Of a stretch of DNA of 36,024 nucleotides, positions 2,584-28,977 are shown in pieces; the stretch's first letter is position 1; every line of letters begins with the position of its first letter. Source of the DNA: a virus (Duplodnaviria; Heunggongvirae; Uroviricota; Caudoviricetes); IMG/VR virus record IMGVR_UViG_2609459800_000003, one strand, 5' to 3'. Position numbers and translations under genes: made by a program. The notes under the pieces are model-generated. The model made no database searches. It had not been told where the DNA came from and was given only the letters and a program-made list of their open reading frames with translations.

Positions 2584-3080
2584 CAGTGATGACGCTCAAT
2601 CTTGTTGAAAAACAGCCAGCAGCTATGCGCCGGATAATTGGTAAGCATCTGGCCGTCCCTCGCTGGCAGGAGACATGCGATTATTATAATCAGATGATGG
2701 AACGTGAACGGCTAACGGTTTGCTTCCATGCGCAGTTAAAACAGCGTCACACAACGATGCGTTTTGAAGAAATGAACGACGTCGAACGTGAACGACTGGT
2801 ATGTGCAATTGATGAATTGCGTGGGGCATTCTCAAAACGCCGTCAGGTTGGCGCAAGTGAGTATGCATATATTAGTTTTTTAACAGTCAGTCAGCGTCGC
2901 ACTTTATTTATGCACGCACGACTGACAGAAAAAGAATTTAACCAGCCATACTGGCGAATTAATGAGGAATCATGTTACTGGCGTGATGCTTTATTCCGTG
3001 CATTACGTGAATTATTCAGTCTGTTTGAGTATGCACCGACAATTCTGACGTCGGTAAAACCAGAGCAATATCTGCATTAA
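2580..3080 (+). CDS. B: replication protein B (helicase-loader-like)
   Basis: 166 aa, matching P2 B in size and position; ATG 2580 preceded by GGAGGG. Confidence 0.9.
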   Translation: MTVMTLNLVEKQPAAMRRIIGKHLAVPRWQETCDYYNQMMERERLTVCFHAQLKQRHTTMRFEEMNDVERERLVCAIDELRGAFSKRRQVGASEYAYISFLTVSQRRTLFMHARLTEKEFNQPYWRINEESCYWRDALFRALRELFSLFEYAPTILTSVKPEQYLH

Positions 3081-3143
3081 GTAATTAACCAGAGTTTTTA
3101 ACGCGCTTAATCGTGCGGGGCTTCTTTTTGCCCGGAGAAAGTC

Positions 3144-3368
3144 ATGCATACAGTTTCTGAAAATCAGTGCGGTAAATACGCATTACTGCTGCAACAGGCC
3201 AGAACCGAAGCACAGGCCGACGCTGCGACGCGCTTTTCTTCTCATCTTGACGCCATGATTCGCCACATCACAAAGGCGGAGTTATCCCGCGTGGAGATAG
3301 TCGAGCTGCTCAGTCAGGAGTCGGAAAAATTTCACAATATCGGATTGTCTCGCGGGGAGGTGCTTTGA
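3144..3368 (+). CDS. hypothetical early protein (P2 orf80 position)
   Basis: 74 aa; ATG 3144 preceded by GGAGAAA. Confidence 0.6.
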
Positions 3369-3670
3369 TGTCCTGTTCTCGTTCAGTTGTATTACTGAAT
3401 AACGCCTTAAAAATCGCCGTTATGGAAAATGGCGATTTGTCTCTTATTCAACTTGGTCTTGATAAAGAAAAGCGCGACATAACTGAATCTGTTATCGCGA
3501 TTTATCAGAATGAATTAAACCTCCTGTCTGATGTGGTCAATTTACTTGTTAAACGCGCTGTATTTCACAAGCAAATCTCCTCCGTGGATGAACTGACGAA
3601 ATTAACGACAGAAATTGCCAGCTATTGCGCTGATGAATTTAAAAAACTTAACGACAAAAGGAGCTGGTAA
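3368..3670 (+). CDS. hypothetical early protein (P2 orf81 position)
   Basis: The ORF-track start at 3365 is TTG; the ATG at 3368 overlaps the upstream stop (TGATG) and follows GGGGAGG. Confidence 0.6.
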   Translation: MSCSRSVVLLNNALKIAVMENGDLSLIQLGLDKEKRDITESVIAIYQNELNLLSDVVNLLVKRAVFHKQISSVDELTKLTTEIASYCADEFKKLNDKRSW

Positions 3671-3894
3671 TGCCGGACAACGTAGATTTTATTCAGGAAC
3701 AACAGGCTGAATTACTGGAGCGTCAGATTAACGCGGCAAGGGTAAAACATTGCGGTGCTTCTGCGCTGGTTTGCGAAGAGTGTGACGCGCCAATACCTGC
3801 TGCCCGTCGTGCGGCTTATCCGTCAGCCACGCGTTGTGTTTCCTGCCAGTCAGTCTTTGAAGCAAAAAACAAACATTACCGGAGAACGGCATGA
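3670..3894 (+). CDS. TraR/DksA-like C4 zinc-finger protein (P2 orf82 position)
   Basis: 74 aa with CxxC...CxxC (CEEC...CVSC); ATG overlaps the upstream stop (TAATG). Confidence 0.7.
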   Translation: MPDNVDFIQEQQAELLERQINAARVKHCGASALVCEECDAPIPAARRAAYPSATRCVSCQSVFEAKNKHYRRTA

Positions 3895-4166
3895 GTATTC
3901 GTATTGAAATTGGCGAACGTTATGTCGTTACCAGTGACAGCTTTCAGTTTATTCTCCACGAGAAAAAGAGAGCGGAAAGCGGTAAAAACGCCGGTCAGGA
4001 ATGGCTGGCGGTGGTTGGTTATTATCCGAAATTAAGCCAGCTCGTTTCCGGCCTGATGCATCACGATATTCTGACCGGAAGCGCAAAGTCTTTTGCTGAT
4101 TTAAACGCGCAGGTTGAGCAACTCAGCAGGCGTTGTTCAGAGGCTTTTGGCTCATATGGCCGTTAA
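3891..4166 (+). CDS. hypothetical early protein (P2 orf83 position)
   Basis: 91 aa; ATG 3891 after GGAGAA; ATGA overlap with the upstream stop; 3' end overlaps the A start. Confidence 0.65.
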   Translation: MSIRIEIGERYVVTSDSFQFILHEKKRAESGKNAGQEWLAVVGYYPKLSQLVSGLMHHDILTGSAKSFADLNAQVEQLSRRCSEAFGSYGR

Positions 4167-6441
4167 AGCCTCCGGGCGTTTTGTCCCTCCGTCAGCATTT
4201 GCCGCAGGCACCGGTAAGGCGTTTGCCGGTGCTTATGCATGGAACGCGCCACGCGAGGCTGTCGGGCGCGAAAGACCCCTTACACGTGACGAGATGCGTC
4301 AGGTGCAAGGTGTTTTATCCACGATTAACCGCCTGCCTTACTTTTTGCGCTCGCTGTTTACTTCACGCTATGACTACATCCGGCGCAATAAAAGCCCGGT
4401 GCACGGGTTTTATTTCCTCACATCCACTTTTCAGCGTCGTTTATGGCCGCGCATTGAGCGTGTGAATCAGCGCCATGAAATGAACACCGACGCGTCGTTG
4501 CTGTTTCTGGCAGAGCGTGACCACTATGCGCGCCTGCCGGGAATGAATGACAAGGAGCTGAAAAAGTTTGCTGCCCGTATCTCATCGCAGCTTTTCATGA
4601 TGTATGAGGAACTCTGTGATGCCTGGGTGGATGCGCATGGCGAAAAAGAATCGCTGTTTACGGATGAGGCGCAGGCTCACCTCTATGGTCATGTTGCTGG
4701 CGCTGCACGTGCTTTCAATATTTCCCCTCTCTACTGGAAAAAATACCGTAAAGGGCAGATGACCACGAGGCAGGCATATTCTGCCATTGCCCGTCTGTTT
4801 AACGATGAGTGGTGGACTCATCAGCTTAAAGGCCAGCGTATGCGCTGGCATGAGGCGTTACTGATTGCTGTCGGGGAGGTAAATAAAGACCGTTCACCTT
4901 ATGCCAGTAAACATGCCATTCGTGATGTGCGTGCGCGCCGCCAGGCAAATCTGGAATTTCTTAAATCGTGTGACCTTGAAAACAGGGAAACCGGCGAACG
5001 CATCGACCTTATCAGTAAGGTGATGGGCAGTATTTCTAATCCTGAAATTCGCCGGATGGAGCTGATGAACACCATTGCCGGTATTGAGCGTTACGCCGCC
5101 GCAGAGGGTGATGTGGGGATGTTTATCACGCTGACCGCGCCGTCAAAGTATCACCCGACTCGTCAGGTCAGAAAAGGCGAAAGTAAAACCGTTCAGCTTA
5201 ATCACGGCTGGAACGATGAGGCATTTAATCCAAAGGATGCGCAGCGTTATCTCTGCCGCATCTGGAGCCTGATGCGCACGGCATTCAAGGATAATGATTT
5301 ACAGGTCTACGGTTTGCGTGTCGTCGAGCCACACCACGACGGAACGCCGCACTGGCATATGATGCTTTTTTGTAATCCACGCCAGCGTAACCAGATTATC
5401 GAAATCATGCGTCGCTATGCGCTCAAAGAGGATGGTGACGAAAGAGGAGCCGCGCGAAACCGTTTTCAGGCAAAACACCTTAACCGGGGCGGTGCTGCGG
5501 GATATATCGCAAAATACATCTCAAAAAATATCGACGGCTATGCACTGGATGGTCAGCTCGATAACGATACCGGCAGGCCGCTGAAAGACACTGCAGCGGC
5601 TGTTACCGCATGGGCGTCAACGTGGCGCATCCCGCAATTTAAAACGGTTGGTCTGCCGACAATGGGGGCTTACCGTGAACTACGCAAATTGCCTCGCGGC
5701 GTCAGCATTGCTGATGAGTTTGACGAGCGCGTCGAGGCTGCACGCGCCGCTGCAGACAGTGGTGATTTTGCGTTGTATATCAGCGCGCAGGGCGGGGCAA
5801 ATGTCCCGCGCGATTGTCAGACTGTCAGGGTCGCCCGTAGCCCGTCGGATGACGTTAACGAGTACGAGGAAGAAGTCGAGAGAGTGGTCGGCATTTACGC
5901 GCCGCATCTCGGCGCGCGTCATATTCATATCACCAGAACGACGGACTGGCGCATTGTGCCGAAAGTGCCGGTCGTTGAGCCTTTGACTTTAAAAAGCGGC
6001 ATCGCCGCGCCTCGGAGTCCTGTCAATAACTGTGGAAAGCTCTCCGGTGGTGATACTTCGTTACCGGTTCCCACACCTTCTGAACATGCCGCAGCCGTGC
6101 TTAATCTGGTTGATGACGGTGTTATCGAATGGAATGAGCCAGAGGTCGTGAGGGCGCTCAGAGGTGCATTAAAACACGGACTGAGAACACCAAATCGTCA
6201 GCAGAGAAACGGAAGCCTGTTAAAACCACATGAAATAGCGCCATCGGCCAGACTGACCCGGTCGGAACGAACGCAAATTACCCGTATCCGCGTTGACCTT
6301 GCTCAGAACGGTATCAGGCCGCAGCGATGGGAGATTGAGGCGCTGGCGCGTGGGGCAACCGTAAATTATGACGGGAAAAAATTCACGTATCCGGTCGCTG
6401 ATGAGTGGCCGGGATTCTCAACAGTAATGGAGTGGACATGA
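4156..6441 (+). CDS. A: rolling-circle replication initiator A (nickase)
   Basis: 761 aa from ATG 4156 (MAVKASGRFVPP...), the N-terminus I recall for P2 A; the track ORF from 4114 is an upstream extension. Conserved HxH-type motif (PHWHMMLF) and tyrosine-containing region (GYIAKYISKN) typical of phiX174/P2-type Rep proteins. Confidence 0.95.
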   Translation: MAVKASGRFVPPSAFAAGTGKAFAGAYAWNAPREAVGRERPLTRDEMRQVQGVLSTINRLPYFLRSLFTSRYDYIRRNKSPVHGFYFLTSTFQRRLWPRIERVNQRHEMNTDASLLFLAERDHYARLPGMNDKELKKFAARISSQLFMMYEELCDAWVDAHGEKESLFTDEAQAHLYGHVAGAARAFNISPLYWKKYRKGQMTTRQAYSAIARLFNDEWWTHQLKGQRMRWHEALLIAVGEVNKDRSPYASKHAIRDVRARRQANLEFLKSCDLENRETGERIDLISKVMGSISNPEIRRMELMNTIAGIERYAAAEGDVGMFITLTAPSKYHPTRQVRKGESKTVQLNHGWNDEAFNPKDAQRYLCRIWSLMRTAFKDNDLQVYGLRVVEPHHDGTPHWHMMLFCNPRQRNQIIEIMRRYALKEDGDERGAARNRFQAKHLNRGGAAGYIAKYISKNIDGYALDGQLDNDTGRPLKDTAAAVTAWASTWRIPQFKTVGLPTMGAYRELRKLPRGVSIADEFDERVEAARAAADSGDFALYISAQGGANVPRDCQTVRVARSPSDDVNEYEEEVERVVGIYAPHLGARHIHITRTTDWRIVPKVPVVEPLTLKSGIAAPRSPVNNCGKLSGGDTSLPVPTPSEHAAAVLNLVDDGVIEWNEPEVVRALRGALKHGLRTPNRQQRNGSLLKPHEIAPSARLTRSERTQITRIRVDLAQNGIRPQRWEIEALARGATVNYDGKKFTYPVADEWPGFSTVMEWT

Positions 6442-6893
6442 TGGCAAAAATTCACGAGGTAAAGCTGCACGCAAAATATTTCGACCTTGTGCTGGAAGGA
6501 AAGAAACGCGCAGAGTTTAGGAAAAATGACCGTAATTATGAGCACGGGGACACGTTGATTTTGCATGAATGGGTGCAGGGTGTGTATACGGGGCGAAAGG
6601 TTGAAGTCCGGATAACAGATGTTACTGACCTGTCAGATTGGCTGGAAGATTATGTCTTGCTAAGTATTGAGCTGCTTAATACAGGCGCATATGAGATTGT
6701 GAACTGGAAAGAACTTAGTGAGCGTGGTCTGGTATTCAGAATTAATCATGAAATTATGCATCAGCTCGGCCTTGCTGTTATGTATGAACCAGAGACGGGG
6801 ATGTCTGGCGGGGCAATGGTTGCCACGGATGGAGCATGGAACTATTCAGATGAACAGATGGAGCGTGCACCGCAAAACGGGTGGCTTGGATAA
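6438..6893 (+). CDS. DUF3850/ASCH-like (PUA-fold) domain protein with uncharacterised C-terminal extension
   Basis: ATG 6438 overlaps the A stop (ATGA) and follows GGAGTGG; N-terminal about 75 aa (HEVKLHAKYFDLVLEGKKRAEFRKNDRNYEHGDTLILHEW) fits the DUF3850/ASCH pattern as I remember it. The track start at 6405 is GTG inside A. Confidence 0.6.
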   Translation: MMAKIHEVKLHAKYFDLVLEGKKRAEFRKNDRNYEHGDTLILHEWVQGVYTGRKVEVRITDVTDLSDWLEDYVLLSIELLNTGAYEIVNWKELSERGLVFRINHEIMHQLGLAVMYEPETGMSGGAMVATDGAWNYSDEQMERAPQNGWLG

Positions 6894-7099
6894 TGCACAG
6901 AATACCAGGCGAGATACCGCACCATAAAACTAAAAATATCAAGCTGATGGCCATTGTTCACCGTCTACAGCAGATTATGGTCAACGAAAATCTGACGCCC
7001 GATGAGCTAGTCGGGTGTGCCGAAATAGTCCGGGATAATTACGTATGGCTTAACTATATCGGTCAGTCCAGCGCTGCACCGCCACCACGCAGACGATAG
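6893..7099 (+). CDS. small hypothetical protein (68 aa)
   Basis: ATG at 6893 overlaps the upstream stop (TAATG); the track start at 6881 is GTG. No recognisable motif. Confidence 0.4.
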   Translation: MHRIPGEIPHHKTKNIKLMAIVHRLQQIMVNENLTPDELVGCAEIVRDNYVWLNYIGQSSAAPPPRRR

Positions 7100-7287
7100 A
7101 GAACGCAGCCAGCTCAGGATTGGCGGGGGATAGAATAACGAGCATAGTGATGCGATTAGACAAACAGACTGACTGGTACACTTAGGATGGTTATAGTGGT
7201 TTCTAAGTGCTTTAGCGATACATCTGGTGGAGTGTTTTACCAACCTCAGAGTTAGCTGAATTTTTAACAAAATACCATTTTGATAGA

Positions 7288-7316
7288 TTTGCCTAATTTA
7301 TTAATTAAACTATACT
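7288..7316 (+). promoter_or_regulatory. candidate sigma70-type promoter for the 7408..8408 module
   Basis: TTTGCC (7288..7293), 17-bp spacer, TATACT (7311..7316) in the AT-rich stretch upstream of the 78-aa ORF; visual match only. Confidence 0.25.
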
Positions 7317-7407
7317 GGACTTATACACAGTGTTCTGTTAATTGTTAGGTTGGTAAGATATTGTGAGGAGGTGATTACTATCTTGGCATCAATCAAGTGG
7401 AGGTTAA

Positions 7408-7644
7408 ATGATGAATATATTTGAACGTATTATAGGTAAAGCTGCCATTGAAAAGGAAAGAGAACTGGCGAGGAGGCTTGAAGCATCTGGAACAAACACT
7501 GTTGAGGTGGTAGGTCGAGGCGCGATTATCACGTCTAAAGAAGACTTGGCAAGCTCAGATACAGTAAAATTGATGAAAATTAAAGCAAGAAGAATAGTTT
7601 CTGAGCAGGTAAAGCAAGAAGAAAAAATGGCTAAAGGGAATTAA
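7408..7644 (+). CDS. small charged hypothetical protein (78 aa), first gene of a two-gene cargo module
   Basis: ATG 7408 with strong GGAGG 5 nt upstream; AT-rich codon usage; stop 3 nt before the next start. Confidence 0.55.
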   Translation: MMNIFERIIGKAAIEKERELARRLEASGTNTVEVVGRGAIITSKEDLASSDTVKLMKIKARRIVSEQVKQEEKMAKGN

Positions 7645-7646
7645 TA

Positions 7647-8408
7647 ATGTTTGCTTTATTAATTATTCCATTACTTGTGAGTGGTTATATTGTATTAACC
7701 ACTCATCCTTATCATTTCTATAGATTACACCGTTATGATGGGCAGTTGTTATATATGAAGTCAGCCGCCTTTGGTCTGTGGTGTTTTATATGGACATTGA
7801 TTATAGCTTACTTAATAAAATGGATATGTCCGAGCTTCCATCCTGTCACGATGGTTCGGGAACAATTAGATCTCAAACTTAGTGACAATGGTACTGAAAG
7901 AATCATAGGATGGATGATTTTACTTTCATGTGGATCGATATTTTTGGCTTGGATATGGAGTGCCGGTGCTAGATATTTGGTTATATATAGAGCTAAAATT
8001 ATAAATTATATCCAAGGGGTAAAGGCTGCCAATATTGATTATGAGAATCTTGTCATGCTAAGGATGAGGCAAGAGCTTATTAATGATAATCCAATGGATG
8101 AAATATTTTTTGATTCGTTAGTTGATAGACGTTCAATACTTATTACGTTGCAAAATAAAAAGACATATGTAGGAATTGTTAACGCATTAGGTGAGCCTAA
8201 CGAGAAAGAAGGACCTAACCAGTATGTTTCAATCTATCCTATTATCTCTGGGTATAGAGATAAGGATTCATTGAAAGTAATCTTGGTGAATGAATATAGA
8301 GAACTTGAGGATGCTGATACTAGTATCATCTTTCCACTAAAAGAAATTTCGCAAGTTTCTTGGTTTGATATGGATATTCATAAAATAGTTGAAAATAATA
8401 AGGTGTAG
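7647..8408 (+). CDS. membrane protein with three predicted N-terminal TM helices and a soluble C-terminal domain of about 145 aa, function unknown
   Basis: 253 aa; hydrophobic segments around residues 2-19, 40-59 and 86-105; AT-rich; tightly coupled to the upstream 78-aa ORF; no catalytic motif recognised. Confidence 0.7.
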   Translation: MFALLIIPLLVSGYIVLTTHPYHFYRLHRYDGQLLYMKSAAFGLWCFIWTLIIAYLIKWICPSFHPVTMVREQLDLKLSDNGTERIIGWMILLSCGSIFLAWIWSAGARYLVIYRAKIINYIQGVKAANIDYENLVMLRMRQELINDNPMDEIFFDSLVDRRSILITLQNKKTYVGIVNALGEPNEKEGPNQYVSIYPIISGYRDKDSLKVILVNEYRELEDADTSIIFPLKEISQVSWFDMDIHKIVENNKV

Positions 8409-8411
8409 TAA

Positions 8412-8436
8412 ATGGTCACCTATAAAAGGTGACCAT
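8412..8436. terminator. bidirectional hairpin between convergent cargo operons
   Basis: Perfect 10-bp inverted repeat ATGGTCACCT / AGGTGACCAT with 5-nt loop, between the stop at 8408 (+) and the stop at 8442 (-); T-rich stretch on the + side. Confidence 0.5.
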
Positions 8437-8441
8437 AATGC

Positions 8442-10706
8442 TTATTTTTGACGAATCCTGATTTTTGGTTGTTCACGAACAACAATATCAGTTTCTTTCC
8501 AACCAAGATTATTTATTTCAACCTCGGCTTCGTTGTAGACTGTAGTAGAATTGGCAAGAGATCTTAACGTAATAGCCAATACAGCACGTTGAGGTGAAGA
8601 TAGAGGCTCTTGCTCTGCTCGTCTCTGAACATCAAGTTTAAGTCTCCATTGCTCCCCATTTATACCTTGCGGAAATTGTTTTCTATAAACTTTGACTGGA
8701 GACCATTTGAAGCCATTTTCTATCAGTACCTTTTCAAATAATTCACTCTTTTCTTTTATTTGTGGAATTTTTCCGCTATGTATCCATTTAGCGTTAACTG
8801 GATCATAAGTGTAAGTCCCGAATGACACATCCACATTAGAACGGCAATATTCAGATGGGTAGTCATAATCAAGCGGTGGAGAATAAACGAGTGTCATAAT
8901 AATTTCACCTGTGAATTTTCCATCCTCAGTACGTAATGACTGTGGTATTACAAATGGCGTTCTACTGAATTCAATACCTTCTCGGGTATCTATTTCAAAT
9001 AGAAATGTAATCTCATTTTTATTGCAACCAATAATATCATTTATATGATCGCTTGGACGTCCAAATCCTTGATAATTAAACGCATAATGCTCCGTTTTGG
9101 CTGGTGAGTTTTTTAACGCAGAATGAATTAATAGTGCCTTGATACGTTCAGGCGATGGTGAAATAGAACCATTAACATCTAGTTCATGCCACAGTGATGC
9201 CGCTAAACTTGAGATTAACGGTGCTGATAAACTTGTGCCAATACTTTCGCAAAGAGCATTGTCCTCGCCAATAGCTATGATTCCGGTATGTTCACAGTTT
9301 AATTTACTGTCACAATTACCTCCAAAGTGATTTATCTCTGGTTTGGGTATAAAGGCTGGGCCGGGACCTCTTCTAGAAAAAGATGAAGGTTCAAATCTTT
9401 TGACCACAGAGTCAGACGATTCTAAATGGGCAACTGAGCCAACAGTTAATGAACGAACAGAATCTGCGGGGGCTGATATTCTGTCATGCCCACCTAATTC
9501 TTGAGGAGGCCAGGTTCGTTGAGGATCATAAATGTAGTTGCCGGATGCTACGACGAAAAGACAATCATGCTCATCATGAAGTGCATTTAAAAAATGCCCC
9601 AATTCAGAGAAGCTGTCTTCAGAACATGGGGATTGACAACCTAATGACAGGTTCCATACACGTACTTCTGGATAGGTGGTCACAGCCTCTCGGATAGCTT
9701 TCATTAATTGTGGCAATTTGAGCGTACCATCTTTGGGAAAGGCTGCAACATCAACAATTTCAGCTTGGCATTGAGGAAAACCAGCATAGTTATTCAACCA
9801 TCTTCCATTAATTGCTAAACTTGCAACCATGTTCCCATGAGAATAGTCGTGTTCTCCTTTTACTAAATCTAAACTATCCCAAATCCATGGCCTAAGTATG
9901 TTGTTATTGGGATCGACTCCGCTATCTATAATTCCGAGTAGTGGATAATGTTTATCCTCTTGAGGTAAGGGAAAATCATCTAGGTCTAGAGTTTCAGCAG
10001 GAATATATTGCGATACTGTATGAGTAAGACCAAATGTTGGCATAGGTTCTAATTTTCGTATGCCAATAAAACTTGCCAGTTGGGCGATGTTATCATTCCC
10101 TTTTACTTCATATATACTCAAATCTGAACTGATATCATACTTTTTGGGTTTTTGTATTCCTAGTTCATCTGCAAATTCCATTAATTCTTTGTCGATACTG
10201 CGGTTAGTTGTTCTATCTTTATGGTCAAAGAGTTTCAGAAGAAAACTATCTGATTTATTTTTATCTATAACATCATGGTTAAGACTAAAAGGTTCGATCT
10301 TTTCAATTACAGCAATATGTACTGTCCCATTATGAGAATTAGTGCTATTTTCAATTTTTTTGCGAAGTTGTGCTAACCCTTTTTCAGTAACACTTATAAG
10401 TAATTCTCCAAAATTATCACTGCCTATTACGGGACATGTATTATCACCTAATAGGCTTGATGGGCGATGTGACTTAGCAAGAGCTTTTTCATGAAGAGTA
10501 ACTCTAGCCACCGCCGGTATATTGGGCCATTTTTTAAATGAGCTCTGGAAAAAATTTTTAACGTCATCGACTTCTTGTTTGAGTCTATTTTTTAGACTAG
10601 TTGTTACTGTTCGGATAGGTTGTTTCTTTCCGAAATTATATGTTTTTTCAGTAAAATCTTGAGGTGTCGCCTCAATTATTTTTATTGGTCTTTCTTTGTT
10701 ACTCAT
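8442..10706 (-). CDS. subtilisin-like serine protease (peptidase S8), cytoplasmic; IetS-like
   Basis: 754 aa; full subtilase signature: Asp (GIIDSGVD), His (HGNMVASLAING), oxyanion Asn (VVASGNY), Ser (GTSLSAPLISSLAA); no N-terminal signal peptide; N- and C-terminal extensions of about 250 aa each around the catalytic core; start overlaps the stop of the upstream ATPase. Confidence 0.9.
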   Translation of the reverse strand: MSNKERPIKIIEATPQDFTEKTYNFGKKQPIRTVTTSLKNRLKQEVDDVKNFFQSSFKKWPNIPAVARVTLHEKALAKSHRPSSLLGDNTCPVIGSDNFGELLISVTEKGLAQLRKKIENSTNSHNGTVHIAVIEKIEPFSLNHDVIDKNKSDSFLLKLFDHKDRTTNRSIDKELMEFADELGIQKPKKYDISSDLSIYEVKGNDNIAQLASFIGIRKLEPMPTFGLTHTVSQYIPAETLDLDDFPLPQEDKHYPLLGIIDSGVDPNNNILRPWIWDSLDLVKGEHDYSHGNMVASLAINGRWLNNYAGFPQCQAEIVDVAAFPKDGTLKLPQLMKAIREAVTTYPEVRVWNLSLGCQSPCSEDSFSELGHFLNALHDEHDCLFVVASGNYIYDPQRTWPPQELGGHDRISAPADSVRSLTVGSVAHLESSDSVVKRFEPSSFSRRGPGPAFIPKPEINHFGGNCDSKLNCEHTGIIAIGEDNALCESIGTSLSAPLISSLAASLWHELDVNGSISPSPERIKALLIHSALKNSPAKTEHYAFNYQGFGRPSDHINDIIGCNKNEITFLFEIDTREGIEFSRTPFVIPQSLRTEDGKFTGEIIMTLVYSPPLDYDYPSEYCRSNVDVSFGTYTYDPVNAKWIHSGKIPQIKEKSELFEKVLIENGFKWSPVKVYRKQFPQGINGEQWRLKLDVQRRAEQEPLSSPQRAVLAITLRSLANSTTVYNEAEVEINNLGWKETDIVVREQPKIRIRQK

Positions 10707-11866
10707 AATATCTCTCTATAGTTCTTAGTTAGCCTTGACACTTTAGCATTTGAAAGCCCTAGTATTTTTGCTATCTTTCGTATTGTAAATCTTTTGGGAT
10801 TGTATTCTCTGAGAGTGGTCACAATCTTTATAAGTAAATTATCTTCTTCATCAAATGTAACTCCCTTCGCTTCTAAGATAGCCTCGACTAAAAATCGGGT
10901 ATCGATTTGTTTATTATTGTAAACCAGAGCGTGTCGCTCAGATCTTAAGCAGCATTGTTCTATAAATGAGCAGTTTAGCCCTGAGGATATTTCCGCAAGG
11001 TCATCAACAAAATCGTCATATGTGGCTTTTATGTTTGAATATTGTTCAAATAGTTGTTTTCTGACTTCAAAATCAGGCAATCCAATAGATATTCTATACT
11101 CAAAGCGCCTCCAAACTGCGCTATCTAGAAGATTTTCATGATTACTTGCAGCAATCAATATTGTTTCTTCAGGTAGATTGTCAATATTTTGCAATAAAGA
11201 AACCACCACCCTCTTCAGTTCACCTAACTCATGCTGATCATCTCTAGCCTTTGCTAGAGAATCTAGTTCATCTAGAAATAAAACACATGGTGCTTTACTT
11301 GCATACTCAAATAGCTGCCTGATATTTTTAGAAGTAGACCCCAGATATGATGAGACTAAGGAGTCACATCTTGCAGTAAGAAGCGGTAAATTTAGACAGG
11401 ATGCAATATATTTTGATGTCAAGGTTTTACCACAACCTGGTGGCCCATATAAAATCATAGAGGATGTCACGCCAAGACCGGCATCCTTTAATTCTTTAGC
11501 TCGTTCAGTGAAAGTCAAAAATTCTTTAATTTTTTTCAGAGTGCTATCTTTCAACAATGGGAGTTGAATTTCAGAAGACGGTTGAGTTACGTCTGCTAAA
11601 TCAAATTTAGTTTCTTTATCTACAGGTAATGTATCAAGACGTTCAAAAATAGGTGATGTACTACGTGATACTTTCTGCAAGTTAAACGTGTTTTTATCTT
11701 GAATACTACCTCTAATGGCTGAAGCAAGCTCAGGCAGCCCCATAGAATCATAGGAACGCGCGAGTTTCGAAGCCTGCCGAACAAAAGCAACTTTATCCCC
11801 TTTGAGTCCAAGACTGATAAGCTGCGAAAGTATCTCGTTTGTGGTCATTTGTGATACAAACCTCAT
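10703..11866 (-). CDS. classic-clade AAA+ ATPase with C-terminal HTH-like tail; IetA-like
   Basis: 387 aa; Walker A GPPGCGKT, Walker B VLFLDELD, sensor-1/arginine-finger region (AASN...WRRFEYRISIGLP); C-terminal KRFTIRKIAKILGLSNAKVSRLTK resembles an HTH. Start codon uncertain (ATG at 11866 has no clear SD; an in-frame ATG lies 18 nt downstream). Confidence 0.9.
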   Translation of the reverse strand: MRFVSQMTTNEILSQLISLGLKGDKVAFVRQASKLARSYDSMGLPELASAIRGSIQDKNTFNLQKVSRSTSPIFERLDTLPVDKETKFDLADVTQPSSEIQLPLLKDSTLKKIKEFLTFTERAKELKDAGLGVTSSMILYGPPGCGKTLTSKYIASCLNLPLLTARCDSLVSSYLGSTSKNIRQLFEYASKAPCVLFLDELDSLAKARDDQHELGELKRVVVSLLQNIDNLPEETILIAASNHENLLDSAVWRRFEYRISIGLPDFEVRKQLFEQYSNIKATYDDFVDDLAEISSGLNCSFIEQCCLRSERHALVYNNKQIDTRFLVEAILEAKGVTFDEEDNLLIKIVTTLREYNPKRFTIRKIAKILGLSNAKVSRLTKNYREIL

Positions 11867-12107
11867 TAATCTGTTGTCTAAATGGCTTATAGGTGAGACA
11901 AATTTCTATTTTAATGTAGTTTATATGTATTTTGGTGAAACGAACACTATGTTTTACATAAATCTTTCAGGTTTGGAGTTCTTGGAGGGCATAGAGTTGC
12001 ATCAATTTGCATTCTAATTAGACTTTTTTATTGCTATCGTATTCTACATGTGACTAGGTCTGCCCTTCCTGATGCGTTTGCATTAAAACCGCCCCATGAA
12101 GCGGGCG

Positions 12108-21541: not shown

Positions 21542-22177
21542 ATGAACACTCTCGCAAATATCCAGGAACTCGCGCGCGCACTGCGCAACATGATCCGCAC
21601 CGGCCTTGTCGTCGAAACCAACCTTAAAGCCGGTCGCTGCCGTGTGCAGACCGGCGGCATGTGCACCGACTGGCTTCAGTGGCTGACCTGTCGTGCCGGG
21701 CGTTCGCGCACATGGTGGGCACCTTCCGTGGGGGAGCAGGTGCTGATTCTGGCCGTGGGCGGTGAACTTGACACGGCGTTTGTTCTGCCGGGGATTTATT
21801 CCGGCGATAACCCCGCGCCGTCTGCGTCGGCGGATGCCCTGCATATCCGTTTCCCTGACGGGGCGGTGATTGAGTATGAACCCGAAACCAGTGCACTCAC
21901 GGTAAGCGGAATTAAAACGGCCAGCGTGACGGCTTCTGATTCTGTTACTGCCACGGTGCCGGTGGTCATGGTGAAAGCATCAACCCGCGTCACCCTGGAC
22001 ACACCGGAGGTGGTCTGCACCAACAGGCTGATTACCGGCACGCTGGAAGTGCAGAAGGGCGGGACGATGCGCGGCAACATTGAACACACCGGCGGTGAAC
22101 TCTCATCAAACGGTAAGGTACTGCATACCCATAAACACCCCGGCGACAGCGGCGGCACAACCGGGAGCCCTCTATGA
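21542..22177 (+). CDS. V: baseplate spike/hub protein V
   Basis: 211 aa as in P2 V. Confidence 0.9.
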   Translation: MNTLANIQELARALRNMIRTGLVVETNLKAGRCRVQTGGMCTDWLQWLTCRAGRSRTWWAPSVGEQVLILAVGGELDTAFVLPGIYSGDNPAPSASADALHIRFPDGAVIEYEPETSALTVSGIKTASVTASDSVTATVPVVMVKASTRVTLDTPEVVCTNRLITGTLEVQKGGTMRGNIEHTGGELSSNGKVLHTHKHPGDSGGTTGSPL

Positions 22178-22521
22178 CAGCGCGTTATCTCGGAATGAAT
22201 CGCAGTGATGGCCTGACTGTCACTGACCTTGAGCATATCAGCCAGAGTATCGGCGATATCCTGCGCACACCGGTCGGCTCACGGGTGATGCGTCGTGATT
22301 ACGGCTCGTTGCTGGCGTCAATGATTGACCAGCCGCAGACCCCGGCGCTTGAGTTGCAGATTAAGGTCGCCTGTTACATGGCGGTGCTGAAATGGGAACC
22401 CCGCGTCACCCTGTCATCCGTCACCACTGAGCGCAGTTTTGACGGGCGAATGACAGTTACGTTAACCGGCCAGCACAACGACACCGGCCAGCCACTTTCG
22501 TTAACCATCCCTGTGAGTTGA
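22174..22521 (+). CDS. W: baseplate wedge protein W (gp25-like)
   Basis: 115 aa; ATGA overlap with V. Confidence 0.9.
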   Translation: MTARYLGMNRSDGLTVTDLEHISQSIGDILRTPVGSRVMRRDYGSLLASMIDQPQTPALELQIKVACYMAVLKWEPRVTLSSVTTERSFDGRMTVTLTGQHNDTGQPLSLTIPVS

Positions 22522-22525
22522 AACC

Positions 22526-23434
22526 ATGCCGATTATCGACCTGAACCAGCTACCTGCACCGGATGTGGTCGAGGAGCTGGACTTTGAAACCATTCTTGCC
22601 GAACGCAAGGCGACACTGATTTCCCTTTACCCGGAAGACCAGCAGGAGGCGGTCGCCCGTACCCTGACGCTGGAATCCGAGCCTCTCGTCAAACTGCTGG
22701 AGGAAAATGCTTATCGTGAGCTTATCTGGCGTCAGCGTGTGAATGAGGCCGCACGGGCGGTGATGCTGGCCTGTGCCGCGGGTAATGACCTTGATGTGAT
22801 TGGTGCCAATTACAACACCACGCGTCTGACTATCACCCCGGCAGATGCTTCGACCATCCCGCCGACACCGGCAGTGATGGAATCTGATACCGATTATCGT
22901 CTGCGTATTCAGCAGGCGTTTGAAGGTTTAAGCGTCGCCGGGTCGGTGGGTGCCTATCAGTATCATGGTCGCAGTGCTGACGGGCGTGTCGCGGATATCT
23001 CTGTCACCAGTCCGTCTCCGGCCTGCGTCACCATCTCTGTGCTGTCACGTGAGAATAACGGTGTCGCATCCGAAGACCTGCTGGCGGTGGTGCGTAACGC
23101 CCTGAATGGCGAGGACGTCAGACCGGTGGCCGACCGCGTGACCGTGCAGTCTGCCGCCATTGTTGAATACCAGATAAACGCCACGCTTTACCTTTACCCT
23201 GGTCCCGAAAGTGAACCCATCCGCGCGGCCGCCGTGAAAAAACTGGAAGCATACATCACGGCACAGCACCGGCTGGGGCGCGACATCCGTCTGTCTGCCA
23301 TTTATGCCGCTTTGCATGTGGAAGGCGTGCAGCGTGTCGAACTGGCTGCACCACTGGCCGACATCGTGCTCAACAGTACGCAGGCGTCTTTCTGTACCGA
23401 ATACCGCGTCGTGACCGGAGGCTCGGATGAGTGA
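22526..23434 (+). CDS. J: baseplate protein J
   Basis: 302 aa as in P2 J. Confidence 0.9.
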   Translation: MPIIDLNQLPAPDVVEELDFETILAERKATLISLYPEDQQEAVARTLTLESEPLVKLLEENAYRELIWRQRVNEAARAVMLACAAGNDLDVIGANYNTTRLTITPADASTIPPTPAVMESDTDYRLRIQQAFEGLSVAGSVGAYQYHGRSADGRVADISVTSPSPACVTISVLSRENNGVASEDLLAVVRNALNGEDVRPVADRVTVQSAAIVEYQINATLYLYPGPESEPIRAAAVKKLEAYITAQHRLGRDIRLSAIYAALHVEGVQRVELAAPLADIVLNSTQASFCTEYRVVTGGSDE

Positions 23435-23957
23435 TTCGCGCCTGCTGCCGACCGGCTCATCACCGCTTGAAGTCGCCGCTGCAAAAGCCTGTGCGGAAAT
23501 TGAAAAAACGCCGGTCAGTATTCGTGAGCTGTGGAACCCGGACACCTGCCCGGCAAATCTGCTGCCGTGGCTGGCGTGGGCGTTTTCGGTCGACAGATGG
23601 GATGAAAAGTGGCCGGAAGCGACCAAACGCGCCGTTATTCGCGATGCCTATTTCATCCACTGTCATAAGGGCACGATAGGTGCAATCCGGCGTGTGGTGG
23701 AGCCGCTCGGCTATCTCATCAACGTGACGGAGTGGTGGGAAAACAGTGACCCGCCCGGCACCTTCCGGCTTGATATTGGTGTACTGGAAAGCGGTATCAC
23801 AGAGGCAATGTATCAGGAAATGGAACGGCTGATTGCCGATGCCAAACCTGCAAGCCGCCACCTTATTGGCCTGAACATTACCCGGGACATTCCCGGCTAC
23901 CTGTTCGCCGGTGGTGTGGCTTACGACGGCGATGTAATTACGGTTTACCCCGGATAA
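23427..23957 (+). CDS. I: baseplate protein I
   Basis: 176 aa as in P2 I; GGAGG Shine-Dalgarno. Confidence 0.9.
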   Translation: MSDSRLLPTGSSPLEVAAAKACAEIEKTPVSIRELWNPDTCPANLLPWLAWAFSVDRWDEKWPEATKRAVIRDAYFIHCHKGTIGAIRRVVEPLGYLINVTEWWENSDPPGTFRLDIGVLESGITEAMYQEMERLIADAKPASRHLIGLNITRDIPGYLFAGGVAYDGDVITVYPG

Positions 23958-23967
23958 GTGAGGAATA

Positions 23968-26178
23968 ATGAGCACAAAATTCAAAACCGTTATCACCACT
24001 GCCGGTGCAGCAAAGCTGGCAGCGGCAACCGCACCGGGAGGGCGGAAGGTCAACATTACCACGATGGCCGTCGGGGATGGCGGTGGTAAATTGCCTGTCC
24101 CGGATGCCGGACAGACCGGGCTTATCCATGAAGTCTGGCGACATGCGCTGAACAAAATCAGCCAGGACAAACGAAACAGTAATTATATTATCGCAGAGCT
24201 GGTTATTCCGCCGGAGGTGGGCGGTTTCTGGATGCGTGAGCTTGGCCTGTACGATGATGCGGGAACATTAATTGCCGTGGCGAACATGGCCGAAAGTTAT
24301 AAGCCAGCTCTTGCCGAAGGCTCAGGGCGTTCGCAGACCTGTCGCATGGTCATCATCGTCAGCAGTATGGCCTCAGTGGCGCTGACCATTGACACCACAA
24401 CGGTGATGGCGACGCAGGATTACGTTGATGACAAAATTGCAGAGCATGAACAGTCACGACGTCACCCGGACGCCTCGCTGACCGCAAAAGGTTTTACTCA
24501 GTTAAGCAGTGCGATCAACAGCACGTCTGAAACACTGGCCGCAACGCCGAAAGCGGTAAAGGCCGCGTATGATCTTGCTAACGGGAAATACACTGCGCAG
24601 GATGCCACCACAGCGCGAAAAGGCCTTGTCCAGCTCAGTAGCGCCACCAACAGCACGTCTGAAACGCTCGCCGCAACACCAAAAGCGGTAAAGGCAGCAT
24701 ATGACCTTGCTAACGGGAAATACACTGCACAGGACGCCACCACAGCGCGAAAAGGTCTTGTCCAGCTCAGTAGCGCCACCAACAGCGATTCTGAAACGCT
24801 TGCAGCAACGCCAAAGGCGGTTAAGACAGCGTATGACCTTGCTAACGGGAAATACACTGCGCAGGATGCCACCACGGCGCGAAAAGGCCTTGTCCAGCTC
24901 AGTAGCGCCACCAACAGTGATTCTGAAACGCTGGCCGCAACACCAAAAGCAGTGAAGTCTGCCTATGACAATGCTGAAAAACGTCTTCAGAAAGATCAGA
25001 ACGGTGCGGATATTCCGGGAAAGGATACCTTCACGAAAAATATCGGTGCCTGTCGTGCTTATAGCGGCGCTTTGAGCACTGAAGCCGGAAACTGGACAAC
25101 CGCTCAGTTTATTGACTGGCTAGAGTCTCAGGGAGCCTTTAATCATCCCTACTGGATGTGCAAGTGTTCCTGGTCATACGGTAATAACAAAATTATTACC
25201 GATACTGACTGTGGGACTATTCATCTTGCAGGTTGCGTGATTGAGGTTATGGGCGTTAAAGCTGCAATGACCATTCGTGTGACCACTCCGAGTACATCAA
25301 GTGGTGGTGGTACCACCAGTGCGCAATTCACGTATATCAATCACGGAGCTGATTATGCGCCGGGCTGGCGACGCGACTACAATACGAAAAATAAGCAACC
25401 GGCTTTTGCATTAGGGAAAACAGGAAATACGGTTGCAAATAATAAAGCGGTAGGATGGAACTGGGACAGTGGTGCTTATTGTGCACAGGATGGCGGAGCA
25501 TCAAAAATGGTGTTGCATTTTTACACGGGTGAGGGAAGTTGTCCGGCAATGCAGTTTCTTGTGGATTATAAAAACAGGGGGATTTTTTACAGGTCGGCAC
25601 GTGATGGGTATGGATTTGAGGCTGACTGGTCAGAGTTTTATACCACATCACGAAAGCCAACACCTGCGGATATTCTTGCTCTGGCATTATCAGGCGGAAG
25701 CATGTCAGGCAGCATAAAATTTATCAATGATGCCTTCCTGATTTGGGAAAGAAACACTGACTGGGCGAAAATTGGATTTAAAAATGATTCAGATGCTGAT
25801 TCTGACTCATACATGTGGTTTGAAACTGGTGATAATGGCAATGAATATTTTAAATGGCGCATCAGGTCTGGCAGCACAACAAAAGATCTGATGACGCTTA
25901 AGTCTGATGCACTACGGGTTACCGGGCAGGTGATACCATCAAATTTCAGCAATTTTGACTCCCGCTATGTCCGGGATATCCGACTTGGTGGTGCCGCCAC
26001 ATACAAACCTGCGAACAATGGCATGACATGGACACATCAGGCACCGTCCGGGTGTGTATATACCGGCATTATTGTTCAGGATACCGGCTCAAACTCTGCC
26101 GATAACATTGGTGGCGTATATTACAGACCGGTTCAGAAATACATTAACGGGACATGGTACAACGTGGCGCAGGTATAA
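23968..26178 (+). CDS. H: tail fiber protein H, with internal tandem repeats and an AT-richer C-terminal receptor-binding region
   Basis: 736 aa (P2 H is 669 aa as I recall); conserved N-terminal baseplate-attachment region; repeated SETLAATPKAVK-containing units; followed directly by G. Confidence 0.9.
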   Translation: MSTKFKTVITTAGAAKLAAATAPGGRKVNITTMAVGDGGGKLPVPDAGQTGLIHEVWRHALNKISQDKRNSNYIIAELVIPPEVGGFWMRELGLYDDAGTLIAVANMAESYKPALAEGSGRSQTCRMVIIVSSMASVALTIDTTTVMATQDYVDDKIAEHEQSRRHPDASLTAKGFTQLSSAINSTSETLAATPKAVKAAYDLANGKYTAQDATTARKGLVQLSSATNSTSETLAATPKAVKAAYDLANGKYTAQDATTARKGLVQLSSATNSDSETLAATPKAVKTAYDLANGKYTAQDATTARKGLVQLSSATNSDSETLAATPKAVKSAYDNAEKRLQKDQNGADIPGKDTFTKNIGACRAYSGALSTEAGNWTTAQFIDWLESQGAFNHPYWMCKCSWSYGNNKIITDTDCGTIHLAGCVIEVMGVKAAMTIRVTTPSTSSGGGTTSAQFTYINHGADYAPGWRRDYNTKNKQPAFALGKTGNTVANNKAVGWNWDSGAYCAQDGGASKMVLHFYTGEGSCPAMQFLVDYKNRGIFYRSARDGYGFEADWSEFYTTSRKPTPADILALALSGGSMSGSIKFINDAFLIWERNTDWAKIGFKNDSDADSDSYMWFETGDNGNEYFKWRIRSGSTTKDLMTLKSDALRVTGQVIPSNFSNFDSRYVRDIRLGGAATYKPANNGMTWTHQAPSGCVYTGIIVQDTGSNSADNIGGVYYRPVQKYINGTWYNVAQV
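24497..24976. repeat. 132-bp (44-aa) tandem repeat, about 3.6 copies, inside tail fiber gene H
   Basis: Unit starts at about 24499, 24631, 24763 and 24895 (exact 132-bp period), encoding ...AQDATTARKGLVQLSSATNS(T/D)SETLAATPKAVK(A/T/S)AYDLANGKYT...; copies differ by a few substitutions. Confidence 0.9.
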
Positions 26179-26181
26179 TTT

Positions 26182-26709
26182 ATGCAGCATTTGATAAATA
26201 TAACGGCAGGTAATCCAAAAACGGTTGAACAATATCAATTGACAAAGAACTTTGATGTTGTCTGGTTTTTTACAGAAGATGGTAAGAACTGGTACGAAGA
26301 ACAAAAGTATTTTGCTGATGACACGATAAAAATAGCGTACGACAAAGATAATATCATCCGCTATGTGGAAAAGGATGTGACAGCTATCAGACCGGATGGA
26401 TTAAGTGTGGTTGAAGTGGCGGATATTACTGCTAACCGACGGGCGGACATTTCAGGGAACTGGATGTTTAAGGACGGCAAAGTGATTAAACGCATTTATA
26501 CGACAGAGGAATTGCAGCAGCAGGCAGAAAATCGGAAAGCCAGACTTCTTGCAGATGCTGAATCCGTAATTTTGCCGCTGGAACGCGCTGTCAGGCTGAA
26601 TATGGCGACGGATGAAGAGCGCACACGACTGGAAGCATGGGAACGCTACAGCGTTCTGGTCAGTCGTGTGGATCCTGCAAATCCTGAATGGCCGGAAATG
26701 CCGCAATAA
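26182..26709 (+). CDS. G: tail fiber assembly chaperone G
   Basis: 175 aa as in P2 G; conserved C-terminus ...[14 protein letters not shown]. Confidence 0.9.
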
Positions 26710-26890
26710 GTTGTATGAGCTTACATATCTATTGCGTAGAGTAAAGCATAATCTGACAGTCCGCTCTGTGCCAGAAGCGGACGTAGCGGCAGCATACATA
26801 ACCTTATGATTTCTTAAAATTTTCCGCTTGGTTTCTGATTGACTAATGAAAATTAATTGAAATTATAAAGCATTCGCAGTAACTTGTGCG

Positions 26891-27136
26891 GTGCCGATAA
26901 TTTCATTCTACCCAATATCATTTATGATTGTAGATAAGAGTAGTGAAAAATATAACAACGGATATAGTGTTGCAATACCACTTGGAGCCGTGAAAATGGA
27001 ACTGGCCGATGATGTACTAAAAATAAACCTTTCATCATGGAATGATATTAAAACAGGATTTCCTTACACAGGGATTAATGAGTATGAGTTACTCATATTA
27101 GATGAGAATCTTTCATTTATAACTTATAAAAAATAA
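26891..27136 (+). CDS. hypothetical small protein at the Z/fun locus (start uncertain)
   Basis: The track start at 26891 is GTG; in-frame ATGs at 26924 and 26996, the latter preceded by GGAG (a 46-aa product). AT-rich; no motif recognised. Confidence 0.35.
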   Translation: MPIISFYPISFMIVDKSSEKYNNGYSVAIPLGAVKMELADDVLKINLSSWNDIKTGFPYTGINEYELLILDENLSFITYKK

Positions 27137-27191
27137 CAATTAACAATACTTCACTTATGTGTGAGTGGTTTTAAAGAGTAAATAATTCATA

Positions 27192-27494
27192 ATGGAAAAA
27201 AGTATGACAATTGAAACCATAAAAATACTAGCGGCAATTAGTAGCATCATTGGTTCTATGATTCTTGCCTATCGAGTTACAGGGATTCTTGCAGCACTTT
27301 CTCTTGCAATAAATTGCCATGAAGAAAACATTAAACAATTAATGCCAACCAATAAGGGGGATGTTTATTATCTCGCAAATGCAACTACGCACGTTAAAAA
27401 TGCGCAAAAGAAACCGCTTCTAATCACGGGGTTTATCTTTCTAATTGCATCTGGTTTTTTGCAGTTTACAGCGTTGATAATGGCAAATATTTAA
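27192..27494 (+). CDS. small membrane protein with two predicted TM helices, Z/fun locus cargo
   Basis: 100 aa; hydrophobic segments around residues 10-30 and 75-98; AT-rich; weak Shine-Dalgarno; followed by a terminator at 27664..27690. Confidence 0.5.
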   Translation: MEKSMTIETIKILAAISSIIGSMILAYRVTGILAALSLAINCHEENIKQLMPTNKGDVYYLANATTHVKNAQKKPLLITGFIFLIASGFLQFTALIMANI

Positions 27495-27663
27495 CAATGG
27501 AATGATACCACCGGTGGTGCGGCTGAAACGATTTGTACGTCATTTAAGCCGCATCGAAATTTAAAGTAACGTCCGCAATTCGCTCCAAGCAGACTGTCAG
27601 ATTTGATAGCGTTTCGGCTATGTAAATAGTCAGTCGGAAAATAAGTGAGTACAAATCAGGACA

Positions 27664-27690
27664 GGCGGGCGAATTGCCCGCCTTTTCTTT
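27664..27690 (+). terminator. rho-independent terminator closing the Z/fun cargo, upstream of the FI late promoter
   Basis: GGCGGGC-gaatt-GCCCGCC hairpin followed by TTTTCTTT. Confidence 0.6.
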
Positions 27691-27786
27691 ATCTGTTGTT
27701 TCATCCACTGACCAGCCAGGTCAAATAGCGTCTCATGCACTGCCCAACAGAAAATAGTTGCACCCATTAACCACGGAGTTAAACGG

Positions 27787-28977
27787 ATGAGTGACTATCA
27801 TCACGGCGTGCAGGTGCTGGAGATTAACGACGGCACCCGCGTCATTTCCACCGTATCCACCGCCATTGTTGGCATGGTCTGCACGGCCAGCGATGCGGAT
27901 GCGGAAATCTTCCCCCTCAATAAACCGGTGCTGATTACCAATGTGCAGAGCGCAATTGCAAAGGCCGGTAAAAAAGGCACGCTGGCGGCGTCGTTACAGG
28001 CCATCGCTGACCAGTCAAAACCGGTCACCGTTGTCGTACGTGTGGAAGACGGCACTGGCGACGACGAGGAAACGAAACTCGCGCAGACCGTTTCCAATAT
28101 CATCGGCACTACCGACGAAAACGGTCAGTACACCGGACTGAAAGCCCTGCTGGCGGCGGAGTCGGTAACCGGTGTTAAACCGCGTATTCTCGGTGTGCCG
28201 GGGCTGGATACCAAAGAGGTGGCTGTTGCACTGGCATCAGTCTGTCAGAAGCTGCGCGCTTTCGGGTATATCAGCGCATGGGGCTGTAAAACCATTTCCG
28301 AGGTGAAAGCTTACCGCCAGAATTTCAGCCAGCGTGAGCTGATGGTCATCTGGCCGGATTTCCTCGCATGGGATACGGTCGCCAGTACCACCGCCACCGC
28401 GTATGCCACCGCCCGTGCGCTGGGTCTGCGCGCTAAAATCGACCAGGAGCAGGGCTGGCATAAAACGCTGTCCAACGTCGGGGTGAACGGTGTTACCGGC
28501 ATCAGCGCATCTGTATTCTGGGATTTGCAGGAGTCCGGTACTGATGCTGACCTGCTTAACGAGTCAGGTGTCACTACGCTGATTCGCCGCGACGGTTTCC
28601 GCTTCTGGGGTAACCGTACCTGCTCTGATGACCCGCTGTTCCTCTTTGAAAACTACACCCGCACCGCGCAGGTGTTGGCCGACACGATGGCTGAGGCGCA
28701 CATGTGGGCGGTGGATAAGCCCATCACCGCAACGCTGATTCGCGACATCGTTGACGGCATCAATGCCAAATTCCGTGAGCTGAAAACAAACGGCTATATC
28801 GTGGATGCGACCTGCTGGTTCAGCGAAGAATCCAACGATGCGGAAACCCTCAAGGCCGGAAAACTGTATATCGACTACGACTATACACCGGTGCCTCCTC
28901 TCGAAAACCTGACCCTGCGCCAGCGTATTACCGATAAATACCTGGCAAATCTGGTCACCTCGGTTAACAGCAATTAA
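27787..28977 (+). CDS. FI: tail sheath protein FI
   Basis: 396 aa as in P2 FI; GGAG Shine-Dalgarno. Confidence 0.93.
   Translation: MSDYHHGVQVLEINDGTRVISTVSTAIVGMVCTASDADAEIFPLNKPVLITNVQSAIAKAGKKGTLAASLQAIADQSKPVTVVVRVEDGTGDDEETKLAQTVSNIIGTTDENGQYTGLKALLAAESVTGVKPRILGVPGLDTKEVAVALASVCQKLRAFGYISAWGCKTISEVKAYRQNFSQRELMVIWPDFLAWDTVASTTATAYATARALGLRAKIDQEQGWHKTLSNVGVNGVTGISASVFWDLQESGTDADLLNESGVTTLIRRDGFRFWGNRTCSDDPLFLFENYTRTAQVLADTMAEAHMWAVDKPITATLIRDIVDGINAKFRELKTNGYIVDATCWFSEESNDAETLKAGKLYIDYDYTPVPPLENLTLRQRITDKYLANLVTSVNSN

Follow-up and report, generated by a model that had tools for sequence, protein, structure and literature searches.

Gene H of the prophage described here is longer than gene H of phage P2 and has a largely different distal half, which raises the question of how this tail fibre gene was put together and what its composition may mean for host recognition. 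The window (the whole 36,024-nt stretch of DNA analysed) was found to contain a complete P2-like (Peduovirus) prophage from E. coli, together with a short piece of flanking host DNA. Of its first 25 kb, about 75% could be aligned with P2 at 97% identity, and the identity of the whole prophage to P2-like phages is 96-97%. According to the ORF list, the late genes lie on the + strand in the order V-W-J-I-H-G-(cargo)-FI-FII, as in P2. The position of H in the V-W-J-I-H-G late operon was confirmed by the ORFs at 21542-26709, and P2, fiAA91-ss and OU784750 are ordered alike. Promoter and terminator scans of 23400-27900 gave hits at chance level. The closest complete genome is that of E. coli SC480 (NZ_LR778153.1), whose H is 99.9% identical and in which H and G are annotated as tail fibre and assembly protein, respectively. 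Elsewhere in the prophage, an Iet defence system occupies the 'TO' hotspot of P2.

Gene H (23968..26178, + strand) is an intact ORF encoding a tail fibre protein of 736 aa. It lies between the baseplate gene I (23427-23957) and gene G (26182..26709, + strand), and the 175-aa product of G is a tail fibre assembly protein (Tfa) of the Caudo_TAP family (PF02413, E = 9e-35), encoded directly after H. The first 151 residues (23968..24420, +) form a P2-type baseplate-attachment domain that matches the full profile of PF12571 (Phage_tail_fib, E = 4.2e-58), and the N-terminal part of H is 97% identical to P2 at the nucleotide level as far as 24693, a point inside the repeats discussed below. A match to TPR_20 (20.6 bits, against a Pfam cut-off of 25 bits) was ignored.

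Mosaicism in tail fibre genes, shared among P2, Mu, P1 and lambda, has been textbook knowledge since the early 1990s. The best explanation of the locus as a whole, which we hold to be very probable, is that H and the chaperone gene G constitute the host-recognition cassette of an intact P2-like prophage. We are equally confident of the overall account in which this role is combined with a linear-mosaic origin and with gain and loss of shaft units. The cassette would have arisen by homologous and illegitimate recombination in a pool of P2, Mu, P1 and lambda-Stf fibres, and H reads, from its N-terminus, as a P2-type attachment domain, a four-unit shaft, an S'/Sv'-type domain, a domain of the P2 H/Mu S kind and a variant tip.

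The shaft array (24490..24975, +) comprises four 132-bp units, each encoding 44 aa of the Phage_fiber_2 family, and was recovered by three approaches. Tandem Repeats Finder reported a single array at 24516-24969 (period 132, 3.4 copies, 89% matches, 0 indels, score 705); a gap-free repeat search found three 226-nt copies at 132-nt spacing in 24486-24975; and the Pfam profile PF03406, which describes repeated units of ~42 aa, matched four stretches of H (E = 1e-80). The units lie at 24490-24621, 24622-24753, 24754-24885 and 24886 to about 24975 (all +), and their encoded pattern is G(F/L)(T/V)QLSSA.NS.SETLAATPKAVK.AYDLANGKYTAQDATTARK. The motif ATPKAVK is present four times in the protein, at aa 192, 236, 280 and 324. 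Unit 4 is truncated: it diverges after about 90 nt and keeps only this first part, so that the figures of 3.4-3.7 copies and of four motifs refer to one and the same array. The original prediction of about 3.6 copies of a 132-bp repeat, within a range of 24497-26178 that takes in the distal two thirds of H, was therefore borne out, with an accuracy of about 10 nt at the start of the repeats. Two further ORFs overlap the array, one antisense (24498-24914, 138 aa) and one on the + strand (24701-24955). Both were rejected as genes, because they lie within the repeats and their periodic translations mark them as by-products of the repetition.

As predicted, in-frame 44-aa units also account for the greater length of H. 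P2 H (AF063097) has 669 aa and two ATPKAVK motifs, and the difference is composed of two extra units (+88 aa) and a shorter distal part (~-21 aa). Repeats of the same family, in variable numbers, occur in the trimeric shafts of lambda Stf and of the side tail fibres of prophages, whose Pf2 (PF03406) repeats have been described (PMC3368898). Those of the window differ in forming a regular head-to-tail array of four full 44-aa units instead of isolated motifs.

To see how the number of units varies in nature, close relatives were compared. Among 5426 complete E. coli genomes, 30 carry the allele, as a 2211-nt gene in 25 and as a 2079-nt gene in 5. The best 120 homologous protein clusters, all >90% identical, fall mainly into lengths of 736 aa (n = 99), 692 aa (n = 16, one of them from Shigella sonnei) and 780 aa (n = 4). 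Copy number is thus polymorphic among close relatives, with three, four or five units joined to the same distal part, and arrays of four greatly predominate. The published phage fiAA91-ss carries a three-motif version (692 aa) in which unit 2 is missing. Two five-unit alleles of 780 aa, both from contigs, contain perfectly identical units; these are units 2 and 4 in one allele (L010) and units 2 and 3 in the other (L011), and the different positions indicate two independent recent duplications. Whole 132-bp units would occasionally be gained or lost through unequal recombination or replication slippage, yielding three-, four- and five-unit versions of one allele in which shaft length alone is altered. 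Either slippage or unequal crossing-over may be the mechanism, as the sequence fits both alike.

An artefact of assembly, in which a tandem repeat had been mis-expanded, deserves mention, because short-read assemblies can miscount 132-bp repeats. We give this reading practically no credence: with differences at 11-17% of positions, the units can be placed unambiguously, and the identical 2211-nt gene occurs in 25 complete genomes as well as in the phage record OU784750.

A more substantial alternative is that the array serves as a fast-switching contingency locus, in which frequent slippage varies fibre length within the phage population and tunes host range. The existence of one allele in three-, four- and five-unit versions and the perfect duplications in the two five-unit alleles would agree with this idea. 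However, frequent slippage needs near-identical units. Units 1-3 of the window, almost identical as protein, are only 83-89% identical as DNA, with 10-14 synonymous versus 2-5 non-synonymous codon differences, and neighbouring units share at most 23-30 nt of uninterrupted in-register identity, on which slippage or RecA recombination would act poorly. In addition, units at the same position in other prophages and four-unit alleles are 95-100% identical to those of the window, even where the distal parts differ, which argues that the four-unit array is old, conserved and long stable. The predominance of four units (99/120 of the best clusters, 25/30 genomes) points the same way. From the divergence of the units and their positional orthology, we regard a fast contingency locus as unlikely, with only a slight chance of being right. 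Occasional gain or loss of units, as outlined above, is the reading we prefer, and the array of the window is old, fairly stable and not prone to slippage. The earlier suggestion that repeat number varies by slippage therefore holds in so far as three, four and five units exist in nature, but not for the diverged array of the window itself.

The remainder of H was compared with known fibres. Canonical P2 gpH (AAD03286.1) resembles H of the window in the N-terminal domain, the first shaft unit, the domain at aa 572-660 and the last 17 residues. It differs in having two units and no S'-type domain; outside the shared stretches, no DNA similarity links its distal 426 aa to H of the window, and about 120 aa that it carries before the tip are missing from H of the window. 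In the DNA alignment, there is no similarity to P2 between about 24970 and 25750; an island of 82% nucleotide identity follows at 25751-25914, and similarity resumes through G at 26124-26782, at 76% only. In canonical P2, neither the repeat count nor the C-terminus is that of the window. OU784750, which is filed under 'Peduovirus P2', does have the same four-unit allele (98% nucleotide identity over the full length of H). The closest published relative, gpH of the P2-like phage fiAA91-ss (KF322032, AGX84580.1), has the same N-terminal domain and gene order, a distal part of 407 aa that is 100% identical to that of the window, and a G protein that is 95% identical. The two H genes align in two pieces at 97% nucleotide identity, and fiAA91-ss differs in its three shaft units and in the other cargo downstream of G.

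The segment following the shaft (aa 329-571; 24952..25680, +) is a homologue of the variable region of the G(-)/C(-) alternative fibres, namely Mu S' (gp52, the G(-) fibre) and Sv' of P1, P7 and D108, to which it is 72-80% identical. Residues 334-571 match residues 177-416 of Mu S' in PDB 8JU3 (domain E = 4e-118, whole-sequence E = 7e-140), a structure attributed to Mori et al. 2024, as cited in a passage of PMC11821841. BLASTP against the Mu genome record gave 72% identity between aa 329-569 and the Sv' ORF, and tblastn gave 79.5% for P1, 75% for P7 and 73% for D108; at the DNA level, 24988-25660 is 78% identical to P1 and 72.5% to Mu. The homology thus extends across the entire S'/Sv' variable domain. 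The end of the constant part (Sc) of Mu S' aligns with the last shaft unit of H. The junction between shaft and distal part lies just 3' of a conserved ATPKAVK-coding segment both in P2 (unit 2) and in H of the window (unit 4), and these matching junctions fit the idea that the motif may act as a recombination joint.

The homology to Mu S' starts at a position corresponding to the boundary of the Mu G segment, and H could in principle belong to an invertible (Gin/Cin-type) host-range switch as in Mu and P1. Unlike Mu S', however, which sits in an invertible segment with a U'-type chaperone, H of the window has neither. The gix/cix crossover core (AAACCNNGGTTT, up to 1 mismatch) was absent in or near H/G, its single match in the window (at 688) being at chance level; a search around H or G found no long inverted repeat bracketing them; and the ORF list contains no second inverted S/U pair downstream. 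Lacking these three features, an invertible segment for H was excluded, and the probability of a switch of this type is close to nil.

Downstream of the S'-type domain, the homology changes again. The 'NTDWAKIGFKND...' domain (aa 572-660; 25681..25947, +) is common to P2 H and to Mu S (gp49, the G(+) fibre): aa 573-656 match residues 184-267 of Mu S in PDB 5YVQ, where it is found with its Tfa, U (E = 6.5e-31), and the block at aa 601-630 is 90% identical to P2 H. The C-terminal tip (aa 661-736; 25948..26175, +) ends with a conserved RPVQKYINGTWYNVAQV and has an identity of 54% with Mu S, 48% with P2 H and 34% with Mu S'; a match to the Mu S tip (5YVQ residues 425-503) covers aa 652-735. In Mu S, the two matching segments are separated by roughly 150 aa that H of the window lacks, and the latter has the S' domain upstream instead. 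In Mu S', on the other hand, the S' domain runs straight into the tip, whereas H interposes the 89-aa domain of the P2 H/Mu S type.

Relatives of H combine these segments in other ways. H of vB_EcoM-12474II (642 aa) shares aa 1-569 at 92% and then continues directly into another tip, without the domain at aa 572-660. H of E. coli ST2350 (772 aa) has aa 1 to about 460 in common, a different middle, and a tip and G that are 96-100% and 98% identical; H of Yersinia phage vB_YpM_115 joins the ST2350-type middle to yet another tip. When 1.84 billion cluster representatives were searched exhaustively, 1086 clusters (at 50% protein identity) matched the distal part, the proteins ranging from 92 to 2077 aa in length. 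The best-matching stretches form four classes (query 1-156, 150-242, 243-327 and 323-407), and each segment is found on its own in hundreds of clusters. The units of exchange are therefore smaller than a C-terminal half, and the distal half consists of three or four segments, at the least, that have been shuffled independently. For aa 330-736, a single-sequence AlphaFold2 model had a mean pLDDT of 35 and a pTM of 0.25, and the domain boundaries given here are those suggested by sequence alignments. The proposal that a receptor-binding module had been swapped horizontally is therefore partly supported: the distal half does have a different lineage, with a Mu S'/P1 Sv' origin and DNA unrelated to P2 at about 24970-25750. 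It is not, however, a single module or a single 'C-terminal receptor-binding region', and the domain at aa 572-660 has a counterpart in P2 H with up to 90% identity per 30-aa block.

Gene G follows the tip rather than the S'-type domain. The G protein is 74% identical to P2 G, 72% to Mu U and 56% to Mu U'. Its N-terminal half, a variant of its own, is 63-71% identical to all of these (U, P2 G and U') and thus about equally distant from each, whereas its C-terminal half is 79-82% identical to the U/P2 G type (79% to Mu U) and 36-40% to the U' type. The assembly protein encoded downstream is thus not the U' type cognate to an S'-type domain, and the S'-like domain may differ in folding or function from its counterparts in Mu and P1. 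As the ST2350 H shows, which keeps the tip and G but not the middle, the tip travels with G, and the two are inherited together. As described in a passage of PMC9608196, the variable N-terminal domain of Tfa binds the fibre tip, the conserved C-terminal domain trimerises, and Tfa remains on the Mu virion. Presumably, G acts on the variant tip through its own variable N-terminal domain.

The distal half of H had also been predicted to be richer in AT than the proximal half, and this is the case: GC content is 0.550 at 23968-24969 and 0.461 at 24970-26178, and third-position GC is 0.566 and 0.432, respectively. The value for distal H is clearly below those of J (0.58) and FI (0.56), structural genes that lie nearby. 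It is not an outlier in the window, where 30% of same-size windows are equally low because of cargo islands. Reading the AT-richness as a sign of a swap relative to P2 had to be abandoned. GC content is similarly low in the distal H (0.474) and G (0.438) of P2 itself, as well as in Mu S (0.458), Mu Sv' (0.471) and P1 Sv' (0.452). Low GC is a property of the shared pool of exchangeable fibre modules. Because the homologues are all AT-rich, composition provides no evidence for a swap specific to this prophage, and the evidence lies in the pattern of homology.

With regard to function, the N-terminal domain would dock on the baseplate and the four units would form part of the shaft. H would trimerise with the help of G at the tip, and the distal modules would bind the LPS core, by analogy with Mu fibres. 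We infer that the distal modules set the receptor and that its specificity differs from that of P2, and the non-P2 host range proposed originally seems plausible. S. sonnei is one of the hosts of Mu G(-). Phage fiAA91-ss was reportedly propagated on S. sonnei by Allue-Guardia et al. in 2013. The identical distal part is present both in fiAA91-ss and in a prophage protein of S. sonnei, so a G(-)-like specificity of H would be a reasonable guess. Which part of H might contact the receptor is uncertain, owing to the extra 89-aa domain between the S' domain and the tip.

The two fibres of Mu recognise different parts of the LPS core, as stated in a passage of PMC11821841. It is possible but unsupported that H has a pair of receptor-binding modules arranged one after the other, a module of the Mu G(-) type followed by the P2/Mu G(+)-type domain and tip, and could bind two LPS-core structures without an invertible segment. 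Both module types are indeed found within one polypeptide, and vB_EcoM-12474II, whose H has an S' domain but lacks the second module, suggests that this module is an addition. Yet the G(+)/P2-type fibre is represented by no more than about 85 aa, the next segment of roughly 150 aa in Mu S and P2 H being absent, and conserved segments such as aa 572-660 are often structural connectors reused across many fibres. We give this arrangement a small chance. The same low weight applies to its extension, in which receptor specificities are stacked in series and arrays of 3-5 shaft units are selected to fit the thickness of the host surface layer. If true, P2-like prophages would tune reach and specificity by stacking modules and not by DNA inversion. 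We prefer the linear mosaic described above, in which the specificity set by the distal modules would differ from that of P2.

The H allele of the window is already known: databases hold the identical protein (cluster P0020, 79 public contigs), and a published phage holds the three-unit version. As a discovery it is of little importance, and its chief value lies in annotation. The prophage is predicted to have a recognition domain like that of Mu G(-)/P1 C(-) in place of the P2 type. The natural series of 2, 3, 4 or 5 shaft units in otherwise near-identical fibres might be used to relate shaft length to adsorption, and the linkage of tip and G might be useful in engineering P2-based particles or tailocins.

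Beyond the cassette, the Z/fun hotspot between G and FI contains a rare AT-rich cargo of two ORFs, which was found in only 2/5426 E. coli genomes and in 0 phage records; searches including Pfam found no match to a known family. A 35-nt inverted repeat brackets this two-ORF cargo exactly, and in other P2-like phages the same repeat flanks different cargo.

The variable cargo between the tail fibre assembly gene G (26182-26709) and the late gene FI, at the Z/fun hotspot of P2, was found to be exactly enclosed by a 35-nt inverted repeat, whose arms lie at 26750-26784 (arm 1, AATCTGACAGTCCGCTCTGTGCCAGAAGCGGACGT) and 27569-27603 and are 77% complementary. The positions of the arms are also the points at which similarity to P2 and to the P2-like phage records fiAA91-ss (KF322032) and OU784750 is lost and then returns. 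Both arms, with 3-8 mismatches, were detected around different cargo in OU784750, fiAA91-ss and one more E. coli contig, and arm 2 is retained in P2. Each 35-nt arm contains a 6-bp stem, GTCCGC...GCGGAC. The inverted repeat could be a boundary at which cargo is exchanged, or else a pair of terminators.

The cargo itself (26785-27567) is very AT-rich (GC 0.34). When 5426 complete genomes of E. coli were searched, just two contained this DNA, and it was found in no phage record. It contains two ORFs on the plus strand, encoding 81 (26891-27136) and 100 amino acids (27192-27494), neither of which has a match in Pfam, PHROGs or PADLOC; the 100-residue product has membrane-like hydrophobic stretches. 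In P2-like phages, the Z/fun site is a known hotspot for anti-phage defence.

Forms of the tail fibre gene H allele of this prophage with five shaft units (780 amino acids) were detected on two E. coli contigs, here called L010 and L011, in both cases at 3001-5343. The two alleles represent different duplications, as units 2 and 4 are identical in one of them and units 2 and 3 in the other. Yet another cargo is located 3' of G in each of these contigs. Within the repeat array of H in the window, two long stop-free ORFs, one on the minus strand (24498-24914) and one on the plus strand in another frame (24701-24955), were rejected as genes. Their translations are themselves periodic, and both ORFs arise only as a side effect of repetition in the reading frame of H.

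The other P2 hotspot is occupied by a low-GC island (approximately 6900-12000, GC 0.34-0.40), which carries an Iet defence system on the minus strand (8442-11866). This system consists of IetS (8442-10706; PADLOC PDLC02197, E-value = 1e-273), which contains a Peptidase_S8 domain, and IetA (10703-11866; PDLC02196, E-value = 9e-132), which contains an AAA ATPase domain. Adjoining the Iet genes inside the island is a plus-strand ORF of 253 amino acids (7647-8408), for which Pfam and PADLOC gave no match. At the edge of the hotspot, directly behind the replication gene A, a plus-strand ORF (6405-6893) encodes a 162-aa protein with DUF3850/ASCH and DUF7415 domains.
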